From a phage, in sequence record PZ349761.1: 45,774 nt of DNA; one strand, 5' to 3'. The notes below the pieces were generated by a model. The model was not told the DNA's origin. It saw only the letters and a list, made by a program, of their open reading frames with translations, and ran no database searches. The translations under genes were made by a program, and so were the position numbers. Positions 3,164 to 40,299 of this stretch are shown here, piece by piece (the first letter of the stretch is position 1; the number at the start of each line of letters is the position of its first letter).

Positions 3164-3307
3164 CCCGCTCCTGCGGGTTTTGTTATAGTTAGTTCACACC
3201 AATCGAGAGGAAATGGAAATGAAGCAATACCCATCTAGCAATCACCATAACGGTCACATCATGCAGTTCTATCGCCACAATCTGAAGACGAAAGGAGTAT
3301 TTGGAAA

Positions 3308-4046: not shown

Positions 4047-4102
4047 ACAGTACCGGGGTAATTTGTTATAGTTACCCCATCGAAACGAACGAGGAAGAAG
4101 AA

Positions 4103-15847: not shown

Positions 15848-15906
15848 GCGCTCATTCAACTTTGATGTATAGTTAACTCATCGAAACGAAATGAGAGATT
15901 AAAGAA

Positions 15907-27047: not shown

Positions 27048-27095
27048 TTTGTATTCCTCATTAAGTTGTTTCGTTTCGATGGAGTAATAGTACAA

Positions 27096-27593
27096 CCGTC
27101 TAGCCTGAATGTCTTTAGCTATTCGTGCTAATGTTTACGCGTAACCGATGTAACTCGATGTATACAATCTCATCCGCGGAAAATGATATACGCACTGTTA
27201 CGCCAACTTACGCATTTGTTACATTAAAATATCTATATATATCAACCTTTTACTCTTATTATTATTATTATATATATTACTGTGTATATCATGTAACTAC
27301 TTCTATAGAGTGTTCCGGTTATAATTTTAATATCATGTGATTTTATACAGTATTGCACGGCAGCTATACCAATGCACCATCAGCAATAAATGATATACAC
27401 GATATACACGCCGGTTACATTGAGCTATAGATGGGCTGAGATGCCAAAAAACGTAACTAATGGCAATGCCTACACGGAATTACAAGGATTTACGCGTAAA
27501 CTTAAATCAACGATTGGCAAAACCAATTGGACTGGCTACGGTGCTGAATATATAGTTACCTCATCGAAATCAAAAAACCAGAGAGATACATAA
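27096..27593. repeat. second AT-rich repeat-laden control region: (TTA)5 at about 27256-27271, TTTACGCGTAAA palindromes (27134-27144, 27489-27500), GATATACAC direct repeat (27400-27418)
   Basis: 27207-27295 is a roughly 85 percent identical direct repeat of 115-200; track ORFs here look spurious. Confidence 0.6.
27114..27132 (-). promoter_or_regulatory. conserved box variant (minus strand reads ATTAGCACgaataGCTAAA)
   Basis: Downstream on minus strand: TACTAT, CCATCGAAACGAAAC (27071-27082), ATG 27047. Confidence 0.55.
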
Positions 27594-27788
27594 ATGACCT
27601 ACTACATTATCAAAGAGAAAAACAACGCACTGTTCGGCGACTGCTACTTTGGAGGTGAAGCCGGTTACACTACAGATAAAAATGAGGCAGACCGATTCGA
27701 AACTAAAGAAGATGCCAAATCTTTACTGATCGGATACTTTACAGAGGAAGAGTTGAAGTCTATTAAGATTGTTAAGGTTAAGGAGTGA
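27594..27788 (+). CDS. hypothetical small protein (64 aa)
   Basis: ORF preceded by TTGGAC-N18-TATAGT and leader CCTCATCGAAATC. Confidence 0.45.
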   Translation: MTYYIIKEKNNALFGDCYFGGEAGYTTDKNEADRFETKEDAKSLLIGYFTEEELKSIKIVKVKE

Positions 27789-33222: not shown

Positions 33223-33240
33223 ATAGCACGAATTGCTAAA
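33223..33240 (+). promoter_or_regulatory. conserved palindromic box ATAGCACgaattGCTAAA with no plus-strand gene downstream
   Basis: Lies about 24 nt upstream of the minus-strand tail fibre ATG and lacks the downstream -10 and leader. Confidence 0.5.
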
Positions 33241-33264: not shown

Positions 33265-33287
33265 TAAAAAAACCTCCCGAAGGAGGT
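33265..33287 (-). terminator. rho-independent terminator of the minus-strand primase operon
   Basis: Minus strand reads CCTCC-ttcg-GGAGG followed by T7. Confidence 0.65.
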
Positions 33288-34213
33288 TAGTCTAGTAATT
33301 CGCTCGCCTTGTATATTCGCTTTCTTATTCCTGATTTGAAGTGGTTATCATTATTTGGCATTACAACATCAAGATTGCGATCGTCAGCAACGGCGAGTAA
33401 ATCAAAATCGCTGCGAGTACAAGCGATGCGTAACTTGTAGTTTCTAAGCGCGTAAGCAACCATTTCCATGTTGTAACTGGAGTGGCAAACAAGCACACAG
33501 CGGTTCCCAGTAGCAATGTGAACGCGATAGCCATCAATGAAATTATCGACCAGATAAGCGTACTCATCATCCTTAAAGGAACCAATAACAGAAACAGACT
33601 GGCGAGTATAATCTTTTGCAGCATAACTAACATCTCCCTCTTCATTGATAAACATTACGTTGCACATCTCTTCTGATATGCCGTCACTATAAGCCATAAA
33701 GCACGGAACTGCGTGGATTAATTCACCTGATTTCGTCCTGCCAACATCAAAACCGAACTCGCTATAGATACCCTCGTATGTACTGAGAGGAGTTGATTCT
33801 ACTCTTTCCGTCCTTTCCATTATCTCTAAGCATCTTTCGTGATCAATCTGAGCGCCCATTTTGTATGGTGATGTTCTTGAAGCTCTTTTGTTTGCTTTTG
33901 ATATAACCTCTACTGGAACGAGATTCAGCCAATCACCAAGCGTATCTATTGTTTCACTATAACTCATTCCAGAACACTTCATTACCCAACCAACACCAGA
34001 ATCATTTCCACACTGGTTGCATATTGCTGCGCCATTTCCCTTTTCTTGACCTAACTCATCAGTGAAGCGAAACCTATCCTTGCCAAAGCAGTAAGGGCAC
34101 GGACCATGCTTCTTGTTGAGATTCTCCTTTGTCCATCCCAGGTGCGACGAGTAGAAAGCACTCCACATTCCCTTCATTTTTGCTATCACTTCATTTTTAT
34201 CATGGTGACTCAT
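33287..34213 (-). CDS. putative DNA primase (zinc-binding plus Toprim-like)
   Basis: CPYCFGKDRFRF...CNQCG zinc-ribbon-like N-terminus; start set to ATG 34213 with RBS GGAGG; adjacent to helicase. Confidence 0.5.
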   Translation of the reverse strand: MSHHDKNEVIAKMKGMWSAFYSSHLGWTKENLNKKHGPCPYCFGKDRFRFTDELGQEKGNGAAICNQCGNDSGVGWVMKCSGMSYSETIDTLGDWLNLVPVEVISKANKRASRTSPYKMGAQIDHERCLEIMERTERVESTPLSTYEGIYSEFGFDVGRTKSGELIHAVPCFMAYSDGISEEMCNVMFINEEGDVSYAAKDYTRQSVSVIGSFKDDEYAYLVDNFIDGYRVHIATGNRCVLVCHSSYNMEMVAYALRNYKLRIACTRSDFDLLAVADDRNLDVVMPNNDNHFKSGIRKRIYKASELLD

Positions 34214-34268
34214 AGTTACCTCCGCAAACAATAAAGGCACTATACATAATGCACAGTGCCATTGTTTA

Positions 34269-34748
34269 TCAAATCGTGCTGTTTTTCTCTTTCTTCTTCT
34301 GGTTCTCTAATTTAATTTTGCGCCAGGAGCGACATTCAGGCTTTGTGGCTAGTTCAGCCTCAGTAACTACGCGCAGCATGTGACGTTTTTTGCAACGAAG
34401 CGTCAATGGCTTTCCGTTACCGTCGAATTGCAGGTCTGGCCTGCAGAATGTAGCGCGAAAACCTTCTCCATTTCGCTTATAGTAGTTGTGCGAAAGTTGA
34501 GCTCCACGTGCAGAAATCATACCACGCTTAAACCATTCCTCTACAGCCTGTGGCGTTACCTTTAACTGCTTCGCTATATTCGCCTTTGTGCCGAAGAAAT
34601 CAAGAACCATCTCCAGCCGTGCTCGTAAGCCAGCCCTTACTTCATCTTTTAATACGTAGTAGCCTGAAGGTCGTTTACGTTGTTTTTTGTCTTTGGTGCG
34701 GACGGTTCCGTTATTACCGTTAATTGTTCGTTTGTCGACTGAACTCAT
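34269..34748 (-). CDS. putative HTH DNA-binding protein (transcriptional regulator candidate)
   Basis: Basic N-terminus, helix-turn-helix-like IAKQLKVTPQAVEEWFKRG; first gene of minus operon at a divergent control region. Confidence 0.5.
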   Translation of the reverse strand: MSSVDKRTINGNNGTVRTKDKKQRKRPSGYYVLKDEVRAGLRARLEMVLDFFGTKANIAKQLKVTPQAVEEWFKRGMISARGAQLSHNYYKRNGEGFRATFCRPDLQFDGNGKPLTLRCKKRHMLRVVTEAELATKPECRSWRKIKLENQKKKEKNSTI

Positions 34749-34760
34749 TTGATCACCTCA

Positions 34761-34778
34761 ATAGCATTTTTTGTTAAA
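34761..34778 (+). promoter_or_regulatory. conserved box variant ATAGCATtttttGTTAAA in divergent control region
   Basis: Between divergent HTH gene and helicase gene; leader CTCAATTAAACGC; ATG 34850. Confidence 0.5.
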
Positions 34779-34849
34779 AGTCATCCTTATTTGATGGTAG
34801 TATTGTACTCAATTAAACGCTACAAGACAATTTTTATAGGAATTTAGAT

Positions 34850-36844
34850 ATGTTGCCTATCGAGAAGCTGGTTGCCAACTTCGATAAAGAAAGAATCAAA
34901 CAGATTCAGAAAGACTATCAGTTTGGAGAGATAACCCCTTACGAATTCCAGTGCGTGACATTTGATGCAATCGGAAAGGCTATTGGCAAGTACGAGGCAC
35001 CATTTATCGCAGACCTTTCAGTATCTGCGGGTAAGACAATCATCCTGGCTATGATTGGTAAGCGCATGGAGCAGCTTGGGCTTCCTTATATGGTTCTTTC
35101 TCGCCAGTCAGAGATAATTAGCCAGAACTCAGAAGAGCTTCGTAATTTCGGCATCCGTAATAGCGTCTATTGCGCTGGCCTTAACGTCAAATCAGTTTAC
35201 TACCCAACTATAGTGGCCAGTGAGGGTACGGCAGCCAACGGCTTGTTTAAGGGGCTTGGTGACTATGTTCCGGCAGTTATCGCTATAGATGAGTGTCACA
35301 TGGTCGATCACATGGATATCGTGGAGGCTGAAGAGAATGAAGAAACATTTGAGCAAATGAGCACAAAGAAAGGCGATATGGTTTTTAAGGATGGCGTAAA
35401 CACAGGATTGCTTGGTACTGGTCGTGCGCAGTACACGCTAATTATCACCGAGATGAAACGTCGTTGTCGTGAGAAGTACGGGCGTGAGCTTCGTATATTC
35501 GGTCTTACTGGCAGCCCGTATCGTAACAACGATCATATCGTCGTTAGCAACCCAAACATCCGTGGATTCTGGCGCAAAACAGTGATTCAGGTGCCAACAA
35601 ATTATCTGGTTGATTTGGGCTTCGTGGTTCCTACTGTTTATGGTGAAGTTGGTGACCTGGGTTATGACCTTAGTGAGTTTGCGCCAGACGGAAGCGATGG
35701 CGTTAAAGACTTCAGCAAGAAAGAAATGGATGCAATGGCTGCAAAGATTCACGACAACCAATCAATGACCCAAAAGATAATGGGTTTTGTTGTGAAAATA
35801 CTCGAGACTCGTAACGCTGCATTGGTAACATGCGCTGGCAAACTCCATTGTGATGAGGCTGCTGCGGCACTACCAGATGGATACCCTTACGCCATCATCA
35901 CAGACTCTACGAGAGAGAGGAAGCGCAGGGAGATTCTGGCTGATTGCCAGACAGGTAAGTACAAAATAATATTCCAGATTGGTTGTCTTACTACGGGCGT
36001 AAACCAGCCGCTGTGGGATACTAGCGTCATACTACGCAAGATTGGCAGCCTAACGCTTATGATTCAGCTTCTTGGTAGGGGGATGCGCAAACTTAAGAGA
36101 TCTCATATTGATGCTGGTTTTCATAAAGAAGATCACCTTGTGCTGGATTTTGCTGGCGCACTTGATGATATGGCTGAGCTTTACTTTGACCCAATTATTG
36201 AAGAGATTCAGGCTGAGAAGTTTAAATCCTCAAGAAAAGGTGGCGATGAGGTTCGTCAGTGTCCGCAATGTGGATATGAAAATTCCCCATTCGCTCGTCG
36301 ATGTAGCAATAAGATTGATGGCGTTAGATGCGATTACTTTTTCCAGTTCACAACATGTGAGGATATCACGGACCCTCAGACGAAAGCTATTATTAAAAAG
36401 GGTTGTGGCGCTCGCAATGACATAGCAGCAAAGGTTTGCAGGGAATGCGGCGAGATGCTTAAAGACCCAAATGCTAACCTGACTGGCAAAATGTATCGTC
36501 GTGGTGATTACCTTCGTGTTTATGATTTTCAAGTTGGGTTAAGTAAGAATCAGACAGGAATTGTAGTTAAGTACAATATAATGGCTCATAACGGAGAGAG
36601 ATTTAACGCTTGGGAGTTCTTTAATCCAGAATCAGACCATCGAGTTTGCAGTGTGCTCTGGAAGAACTTTTGCTTAGCTCATATTGAGAATCGCACGGAA
36701 GCGGCACGAATTGGCAGGCTTAAAAATGCCAGAATGATTATGACTAACGTAGATAAGTTCCGTGCGCCAGTTCAGGTTACGCATCGCCGGAATGCAAAAG
36801 GAAAGGACGTGATAGCGTTTAAGAATTTTGGAGAATTATTATGA
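34850..36844 (+). CDS. SF2 DNA helicase with C-terminal zinc ribbon
   Basis: Walker A SAGKT, DECH box (AIDECHM), Cys pairs CPQCGY..C..C near C-terminus. Confidence 0.8.
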   Translation: MLPIEKLVANFDKERIKQIQKDYQFGEITPYEFQCVTFDAIGKAIGKYEAPFIADLSVSAGKTIILAMIGKRMEQLGLPYMVLSRQSEIISQNSEELRNFGIRNSVYCAGLNVKSVYYPTIVASEGTAANGLFKGLGDYVPAVIAIDECHMVDHMDIVEAEENEETFEQMSTKKGDMVFKDGVNTGLLGTGRAQYTLIITEMKRRCREKYGRELRIFGLTGSPYRNNDHIVVSNPNIRGFWRKTVIQVPTNYLVDLGFVVPTVYGEVGDLGYDLSEFAPDGSDGVKDFSKKEMDAMAAKIHDNQSMTQKIMGFVVKILETRNAALVTCAGKLHCDEAAAALPDGYPYAIITDSTRERKRREILADCQTGKYKIIFQIGCLTTGVNQPLWDTSVILRKIGSLTLMIQLLGRGMRKLKRSHIDAGFHKEDHLVLDFAGALDDMAELYFDPIIEEIQAEKFKSSRKGGDEVRQCPQCGYENSPFARRCSNKIDGVRCDYFFQFTTCEDITDPQTKAIIKKGCGARNDIAAKVCRECGEMLKDPNANLTGKMYRRGDYLRVYDFQVGLSKNQTGIVVKYNIMAHNGERFNAWEFFNPESDHRVCSVLWKNFCLAHIENRTEAARIGRLKNARMIMTNVDKFRAPVQVTHRRNAKGKDVIAFKNFGELL

Positions 36845-37274: not shown

Positions 37275-37338
37275 GACGAATCGGTGAGGTGGTGTATTAT
37301 CACTTCATCGAAACGAAACAGAAAGAGAGAGAAACAAA

Positions 37339-40232: not shown

Positions 40233-40299
40233 CGCATGCCGCAGAAATGCGGCATAATTACCACATCGAAACGAGATGAACTAAACGAGGAAACACAAA

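Follow-up and report, generated by a model that had tools for sequence, protein, structure and literature searches.

Promoter boxes of a T1-like coliphage resemble class II marboxes, and one lies in a predicted divergent promoter pair beside a pir ortholog

The window analysed here, the whole stretch of sequence record PZ349761.1 (45.8 kb), is a near-complete genome of a T1-like coliphage, a siphovirus (Drexlerviridae, Braunvirinae, Veterinaerplatzvirus). A leftward gene for a 159-amino-acid helix-turn-helix (HTH) regulator, the ortholog of the T1 protein Pir (34269-34748, minus strand), and a rightward helicase gene (34850-36844, plus strand) diverge from a 101-bp spacer (34749-34849). The spacer contains one copy of a repeated element, here called the box (ATAGCATTTTTTGTTAAA, 34761-34778, plus strand), which faces the helicase gene. 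What is new is the recognition of this repeat as a consensus class II marbox and of the spacer as an overlapping divergent promoter pair around it; already known are experiments on the Pir family and a description of the repeat in a 21-nt form. In the reading we favour, to which we assign a probability of about 0.6, the boxes would be class II marbox promoters read by a host activator of the MarA/SoxS/Rob type, and Pir would be an autoregulated regulator with a Cro fold that acts at or around the overlapping promoter pair. Sequence, geometry, conservation and orthology were computed, and from these we infer the binder of the box, the transcription starts and the switch behaviour of the spacer.

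A repeated promoter element with features of class II marboxes

Repeat finding together with a motif census identified 19 box copies in the window, far above chance. The sequence TAGCAnnnnnTGCTA with at most one mismatch is matched 17 times against 2.0 expected, and exact GCANNWWNTGNNAAA occurs 16 times against 0.9 expected, a count reached by none of 100 shuffles. A sequence-only reading of this DNA had noted a variant of the box between the two divergent genes, and that copy is a member of this family. Eighteen of the 19 copies are followed 19-21 nt downstream by a -10-like hexamer, the spacing being exactly 20 nt in 15 of the 19, and 18 point in the same direction as the hexamer and the downstream gene. 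At the level of the phage family the same 20-nt spacing is found at 71% of 411 sites. After the -10 the unit continues on the same strand with a conserved leader (TACCCCATCGAAACGA-like), a ribosome-binding site (RBS) and a start codon. The box promoters lack a -35 hexamer: in the 16-18-nt window upstream of the -10 the best match averages 3.06 of 6 positions and never exceeds 4, compared to 2.5 for random sequence.

A-type, T-type and G-type copies all occur in the window, and the box is the same in the phages T1, Vc1 and Motto. When the exact 18-mer was searched in viral contigs, all matches listed were on contigs of Drexlerviridae size. The box adjacent to pir is T-type (TTTTT centre) in 51 of 52 distinct family versions and often has GCAT instead of GCAC; away from pir, G-type (CGAATTG) and A-type boxes are common (related loci L004-L083; T1 L002 36444-36461; Vc1 L003 27203). 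The element was described in 2024 in phage TLS as a 21-nt direct repeat, aaATAGCACnnnTTGnTAAAA, noted also in T1, Rtp and Rogue1, that is co-directional with transcription and falls into A, T and G subclasses, with a stoperator, an enhancer-binding site and an UP element given as possible functions (PMC11447400). The TLS re-annotation lists only three sigma-70-like promoters in addition to the unexplained 21-nt repeat, names no binding factor and makes no mention of the marbox, Rob/MarA/SoxS or Pir (PMC11447400). The TLS repeat and the window box are one element: orientation rule and the three subclasses agree.

The box, whose conserved core reads GCAC-N4-TG-N2-AAA, fits the marbox, the non-palindromic site of stress activators of the host (MarA, SoxS and Rob), which is given as 5'-gcannwwntgnnaaa-3' (PMC12052159) or as GCAHWWWWTGYYAAA and is bound by MarA as a monomer (PMC6900184). 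Class II marboxes are in forward orientation and overlap the -35 (PMC12052159), and a recognisable -35 is absent from the promoters that carry them (PMC10268841); on micF, a class II promoter that has been structurally solved, RamA is located at about -41 (PMC8811837). The window holds 16 exact matches to gcannwwntgnnaaa and 14 of these are box sites, including the 15-nt core GCATTTTTTGTTAAA (34764-34778) of the box in the spacer. T-type boxes fit GCAHWWWWTGYYAAA as well. Compared with sites defined by chromatin immunoprecipitation, the box at 34761-34778 is one base off the SoxS/MarA site at ypeC, GCATTTTTTGCTAAA, and the window boxes in general are near-identical to this site and to those at marR/marC (CCACGATTTGCTAAA) and micF (GCACTGAATGATAAA). 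The E. coli micF promoter, read directly, consists of GCACTGAATGTCAAA, 20 nt, TAGAAT, 7 nt and the +1 of micF RNA; its spacing between box and -10 equals that of the phage box promoters. The window boxes consequently share with micF and the other class II promoters of the mar-sox-rob(-ram) system the consensus core, a forward-oriented asymmetric site, a gap of 20 nt to the -10, the class II position (centred at about -40 relative to predicted starts) and the lack of a -35. They differ from host marboxes in number and quality: the design is used about 18 times in 46 kb, for early, replication, structural and lysis genes, and the phage copies are far closer to consensus than most host sites, MarA/SoxS/Rob binding being putative here.

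For a family-wide view, a position weight matrix was built from 304 distinct boxes of the window phage, T1, Vc1 and 80 related contigs. Because the matrix was seeded with the consensus, which inflates absolute conservation, its informative part is the pattern of allowed substitutions: GCAC and (T)AAA are the invariant positions, and the variation tracks marbox degeneracy, position 2 allowing only T or C, position 14 C or T and positions 9-10 A or T. On sequence grounds the repeat is rather probably a consensus class II marbox, with a binder from the row MarA, SoxS and Rob. The corresponding mechanism would be that of micF: an AraC-family monomer of the host (Rob, MarA or SoxS; RamA in Klebsiella or Salmonella hosts) would bind the box and recruit RNA polymerase, at some 18 promoter-linked boxes of one predicted design (box, 20 nt, -10, conserved leader, RBS). 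We see an even chance that this extends to the family as a whole, such that Drexlerviridae wire almost all of their promoters to MarA/SoxS/Rob (RamA), activators of the host's stress and antibiotic-resistance response, via class II marboxes that replace the -35, and that Pir tunes or times this dependence without reading the box. A literature search, with most subscription journals outside its reach, found no work linking the marbox, SoxS or Rob to T1-like phages.

Several other candidates were rejected. A sigma-32-type reading of CCCCAT after the -10 fails because a TTGAAA-like element is missing 13-15 nt upstream and because not all box promoters have CCCCAT. A SlyA/MarR-type site (TTAGCAAGCTAA) has a half-site spacing that is off by 5 bp. 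A phage-encoded MarA/SoxS-like reader was not found either: Pfam gave no AraC-type HTH among the 62 open reading frames (ORFs) of the window, and fold searches with Pir return neither MarA nor Rob.

Two further features of the box promoters were observed downstream of the box. The leader motif (T)ACCCCATCGAAACGA extends from the -10 into the RBS at most of them, for example at 4072-4088, 15874-15892, 37301-37319 and 40259-40277, and is present in T1, Vc1 and Motto as well; possible roles are in promoter escape, in mRNA stability or translation, or as a protein or RNA target. In addition, an inverted repeat brackets or abuts the -10 in about 11 of the 19 box promoters (z -3 to -6.7 relative to shuffles), with repeats formed by spacer and -10 at the promoters at 1826, 4029, 29389, 34282 (minus), 37257, 40215, 43774 (minus) and 44556 (minus). 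The arm sequences differ between promoters, which indicates selection on structure. Some of the spacers are true terminators, such as CCCGCTCCTGCGGGTTTT at 3164-3181, giving a unit of box, hairpin or terminator, and -10. Read-through transcripts could be processed or terminated at these hairpins.

Predicted overlapping divergent promoters in the pir-helicase spacer

The divergent arrangement of the HTH gene and the helicase gene had been proposed from the sequence, together with a minus-strand TTGTCT-N17-TACAAT followed by CCATCAAATAAGG, and both are present. TTGTCT (34830-34825) and, 17 nt further, TACAAT (34807-34802) form a predicted sigma-70-type pir promoter (34802-34830, minus strand) with a predicted start at about 34795 and with CCATCAAATAAGG located downstream at 34797-34785; a sigma-70-like match by itself is at chance level in the window (4 found, 3.9 expected). 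In the opposite direction, the plus-strand box lies 19 nt upstream of TAGTAT (34798-34803, plus strand), the predicted -10 of the helicase-operon promoter, for which we predict a start at about 34810-34811. That the same box would also serve the helicase gene goes beyond the earlier reading, as does a second box (34282-34265) that would serve the primase gene on the other side of pir.

The two -10 hexamers of the window overlap by two bases, and 16 bp separate the predicted rightward start (about 34811) from the leftward one (about 34795). In the predicted pir transcript the box is reversed, spans about +18 to +35 and closely precedes the RBS. This layout is found across Drexlerviridae contigs, where 66 distinct upstream regions show a -10, about 20 nt, a reversed box, an RBS and the regulator ATG. 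Among the 52 distinct versions of the segment from box to promoter, 38 have TATTAT as the helicase -10 and 40 have TATAAT as the pir -10, and in 37 the hexamers on opposite strands are offset by 1 nt, forming one TATTATA/TATAATA element for both directions.

With overlapping divergent -10s and predicted starts this close together, RNA polymerase can occupy only one promoter at a time, and recruitment to the box promoter should consequently lower pir transcription. Negative control of pir would then follow whichever protein binds the box. We propose that the leftward sigma-70-type promoter, TTGTCT-17-TACAAT, drives pir mRNA with no need for an activator, and that the rightward promoter, which lacks a -35, depends on the forward marbox-type box 19 nt upstream of its -10. 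With the box and the rightward promoter occupied, the pir promoter would be shut, and the spacer could act as a switch from regulator synthesis to the expression of replication genes.

The regulator and the reader of the box

The regulator is 53% identical to T1 ST23 (Orf23; E 5e-47) and syntenic with it. PHROG 2856, 'transcriptional regulator', matches residues 1-155 (E 1e-82), and this match and the model fold bear out the HTH that had been read from the sequence. Pfam HTH matches are weak, with P22_Cro scoring 27.4 bits at residues 47-72 (gathering score 30.2) and YdaS also below threshold, and a sequence search against solved structures gave marginal Cro matches only (E ~0.01). In the AlphaFold model (pLDDT, the predicted local distance difference test score, 88.6) the central domain resembles the all-alpha Cro proteins of Xfaso 1 (3bd1), P22 (1rzs) and N15 (6on0), placing it in the Cro/cI class of HTH domains. 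Three parts can be distinguished: a disordered basic arm (residues 5-26), the Cro-type HTH (about 35-95) and a conserved C-terminal domain (96-128), for which the fold searches returned no structural match. Compared to Cro, and to lambda cI at PRM, Pir has an additional invariant basic N-terminal arm of 25 residues and a C-terminal domain of about 60 residues, its recognition helix is not conserved, no lysogeny module lies around it and operator symmetry was not found.

Pir homologs were found in 825 phage records and make up 113 protein clusters, the clusters all coming from contigs of Drexlerviridae size. The most conserved segments of the family are the basic arm (DKRxxNGNNGTxRGxDKKxRKRP), helix 1 (EVRAGLRAR), the GMIS turn and the C-terminal domain, and the HTH helices are the most variable structured segments. 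Among structured segments, mean entropy peaks at the predicted recognition helix (66-75), with 2.09 bits and 16 different residues at position 66, and the recognition helices of T1, Vibrio phage Vc1 and Motto differ strongly. That arm and C-terminal domain are invariant would be in keeping with their touching either a conserved partner in the host or, non-classically, DNA. The arm includes an AT-hook-like RKRP and the C-terminal domain two invariant cysteines (C102 and C119). The regulator is also encoded, at about 67% identity, in some 20 records with the name 'Campylobacter phage' (host C. jejuni); these resemble ordinary enterobacterial T1-like phages, and their host labels are probably wrong.

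In T1, orf23 was given the new name Pir, which stands for 'prophage induction regulator' (Laganenka et al., 2019, PMC6737242). In green fluorescent protein reporters, T1 Pir activated Phol and Pdam and repressed its own promoter and PrecE; Orf65 repressed pir and activated its own promoter, itself 'independent of Pir', and cAMP-CRP repressed pir (PMC6737242). These functions were tested for T1 only, by plasmid reporters and over-expression, no Pir binding site was defined, and box promoters had basal activity in phage-free E. coli (PMC6737242). We placed the reporter inserts by locating the published primers on the T1 genome. Pdam, activated by Pir, is a complete T-type box promoter, and Ppir, repressed, consists of TTGAAT-17-TATAAT followed by a reversed T-type box before the RBS. 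Porf65, which is Pir-independent, has a perfect G-type box, PrecE, repressed, is TTGACT-16-TATAAT with no box, and Phol, activated, contains a fragment of a box only. Box content and Pir response consequently match only in part, because Porf65 with its box is unresponsive and PrecE and Phol respond without a complete one. The overlap of divergent promoters could explain the repression of Ppir, since its insert contains the complete divergent helicase promoter.

T1 Pir and the window regulator agree in synteny and in having a sigma-70 promoter with a reversed T-type box before the RBS. They differ in the pir promoter itself (TTGTCT-17-TACAAT in the window, TTGAAT-17-TATAAT in T1) and in that the window has no Orf65 homolog (tblastn best E 2.4). 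The sequence-only reading had taken an HTH gene beside a copy of the box as the usual layout of an autoregulated regulator with a palindromic operator. The experiments on the T1 ortholog support the part about autoregulation: by analogy the window regulator very probably autoregulates, and by orthology one would expect negative autoregulation together with the activation of other phage promoters. The part about a palindrome read by the HTH is weakened by asymmetric conservation and by the marbox fit. The box does contain the dyad TAGCA-N5-TGCTA, part of which is inherent in the marbox consensus (GCA...TGC). In the 304 family boxes, however, there are no two equally conserved symmetric half-sites of the kind found in Cro/cI-type operators: G4 is conserved in 100% and its mirror position C14 in 66%, C7 (93%) faces T11 where symmetry needs G, and positions 16 and 4 do not mirror the variation seen at 2 and 14. 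The recognition helix is likewise not conserved together with the box, contrary to what a Cro/cI operator would lead one to expect, with helix 66-75 being variable and the box unchanged in T1, Vc1 and Motto. A protein that reads some 20 unchanging sites in each genome would be expected to retain the residues that contact bases, and the variability of the helix therefore argues against a classical HTH reading. An 'operator-like palindrome' read by Pir is doubtful on this pattern, and Pir, which had been put forward as the prime candidate for the box-binding factor, no longer is one.

The rival that survives best still has Pir on the box. A Pir dimer bound to the dyad TAGCA-N5-TGCTA near -42 would switch on the about 18 box promoters, as lambda cI does at PRM or as Mu Mor does, and would repress its own gene via the box in the 5' untranslated region. 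The pir gene adjoins a box in every relative, the 5+5 dyad with half-site centres 10 bp apart suits an HTH dimer, and the protein with its Cro-type fold, known from hundreds of phage records, is the only recognisable DNA-binding protein of the genome, being the sole Pfam-recognisable HTH protein among the 62 ORFs. The T1 promoters Pdam and Ppir, both with T-type boxes, the T-type constraint beside pir, the absence of the other T1 regulator, Orf65, from the window and the retention of boxes in Motto under a non-enteric host label also speak for it. We nevertheless consider this explanation unlikely. All conserved positions of the box are accounted for by the marbox, its orientation follows transcription, a constraint that would be superfluous for a symmetric site, and no structured part of this family, whose box is invariant, varies more than the recognition helix. 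The independence of Porf65, the box-less responses of PrecE and Phol and the sub-threshold P22_Cro match point in the same direction.

Several observations weigh against the marbox reading, in addition to the seeding of the matrix. Pir alters the T1 box promoter Pdam and the box-containing Ppir, and could read at least the T-type boxes, alone or with another protein. The marbox assignment is based on sequence and geometry, and the T-type constraint at the pir-adjacent box (51/52) is not explained by the marbox consensus. Rob is largely sequestered in standard growth, and MarA and SoxS need induction (PMC10268841), so that it would be odd for a robust lytic phage to place nearly all of its promoters under these proteins. 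Motto (ON843697.1), whose recorded host is Pseudomonas aeruginosa, has 15 exact boxes in 40 kb with the usual -10 spacing; if this host label is right, a phage-encoded reader of the box is favoured, but the label is doubtful given a G+C content of 44.8%. With host activators at the marboxes, Pir would, by orthology with T1 Pir, lower its own expression and raise some phage promoters, and its site could be the overlapping promoter pair or the T-rich box subclass, or it could act through its invariant arm and C-terminal domain on a conserved host partner.

It is very improbable that the box is read by RNA polymerase itself, as an UP-like element or as a displaced -35 (TTGCTA), with no dedicated factor. 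TTGCTA agrees with TTGACA at 4 of 6 positions, A-rich flanks are present on both sides of the box, and box promoters do show basal activity in phage-free reporter cells. As a true -35, TTGCTA was rejected, being 22 nt from the -10 and outside the 16-18-nt window, which holds no -35. A distance of 22 nt is too far for sigma region 4. UP elements are among the options of the TLS authors (PMC11447400), but the invariant GCAC core of the box is not A/T-rich, unlike an UP element, and one would have to put the exact fit to a known activator site, and its geometry, down to coincidence. Less probable still is that an unrecognised small early phage protein binds the box, with Pir and host factors as bystanders: most early genes are small ORFs of unknown function, and T1 Orf65 activates its own box promoter and represses pir, but Orf65, also rejected as a general reader, has no homolog in the window although the box system is identical, no other window ORF has a recognisable DNA-binding domain, and box promoters work in uninfected reporter cells.

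Related systems, consequences and neighbouring genes

The promoters of T4 MotA/AsiA and Mu Mor/C resemble the box promoters in having a good -10, no -35 and a conserved upstream box at a fixed distance; the sequence and position of their boxes differ from those of the window box. The MotA box, for one, has its centre near -30. None of the 62 window ORFs was recognised as a homolog of MotA, AsiA or Mor.

The marbox reading offers a candidate mechanism for some 20 promoters in each genome of T1 and its relatives, of which hundreds have been sequenced. If it is correct, phage gene expression would be linked to the clinical multidrug-resistance regulators MarA, SoxS, Rob and RamA and would rise when the mar/sox/rob/ram regulon is on, as with bile salts, salicylate, oxidative stress or in multidrug-resistant marR/ramR mutants. 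Such mutants, or hosts in the bile-rich gut, might then be better hosts, and loss of rob, marA or soxS might bring tolerance, which would bear on phage therapy with Klebsiella and E. coli members of Drexlerviridae.

The 4.1 kb around the locus are 97% identical to Veterinaerplatzvirus T145P1 and Escherichia phage 2725-N35. In the 2725-N35 annotation the 159-amino-acid ORF is a 'transcriptional regulator' located between 'DNA primase' and 'DNA helicase', and the order primase (minus), regulator (minus), helicase (plus) is kept in T1, Vc1, Motto, 2725-N35 and 80 viral contigs. The helicase gene, identified by domain matches (Helicase_C, zinc ribbons), is the first of a rightward operon. Downstream of pir, the second box, ACAGCACGATTTGATAAA (34265-34282, minus strand), overlaps the last codons and stop of pir and is the putative marbox of the primase promoter. 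A terminator-like hairpin with a T-rich tail (34236-34260, minus strand; dG -18.5, z -6.7) follows directly 3' of pir, and the primase -10, TATAGT (34244-34239, minus strand), lies inside its descending arm. The primase gene itself (Zn_Ribbon_Prim; 33287-34240, minus strand) likely has its true start at the ATG at 34213, after GGAGG.

A perfect box at 33223-33240 (plus strand) is an orphan that lacks a correctly spaced -10. Read on the minus strand, it is preceded by an extended -10, TGcTACAAT (33253-33245), and followed by the RBS and ATG (33199) of a gene for an 870-residue tail-fibre or tailspike protein, an order of promoter, reversed box and RBS that is the same as at pir and suggests the same negative control. 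T1 has an equivalent orphan box (L002 34902). Another divergent region, at 27048-27600 beside exonuclease and recombination genes, has a minus-strand box promoter (27131) and a box-less leader-type sequence on the plus strand (27550-27596), and is the counterpart of the T1 cor-recE gap that is home to the box-less, Pir-repressed PrecE.

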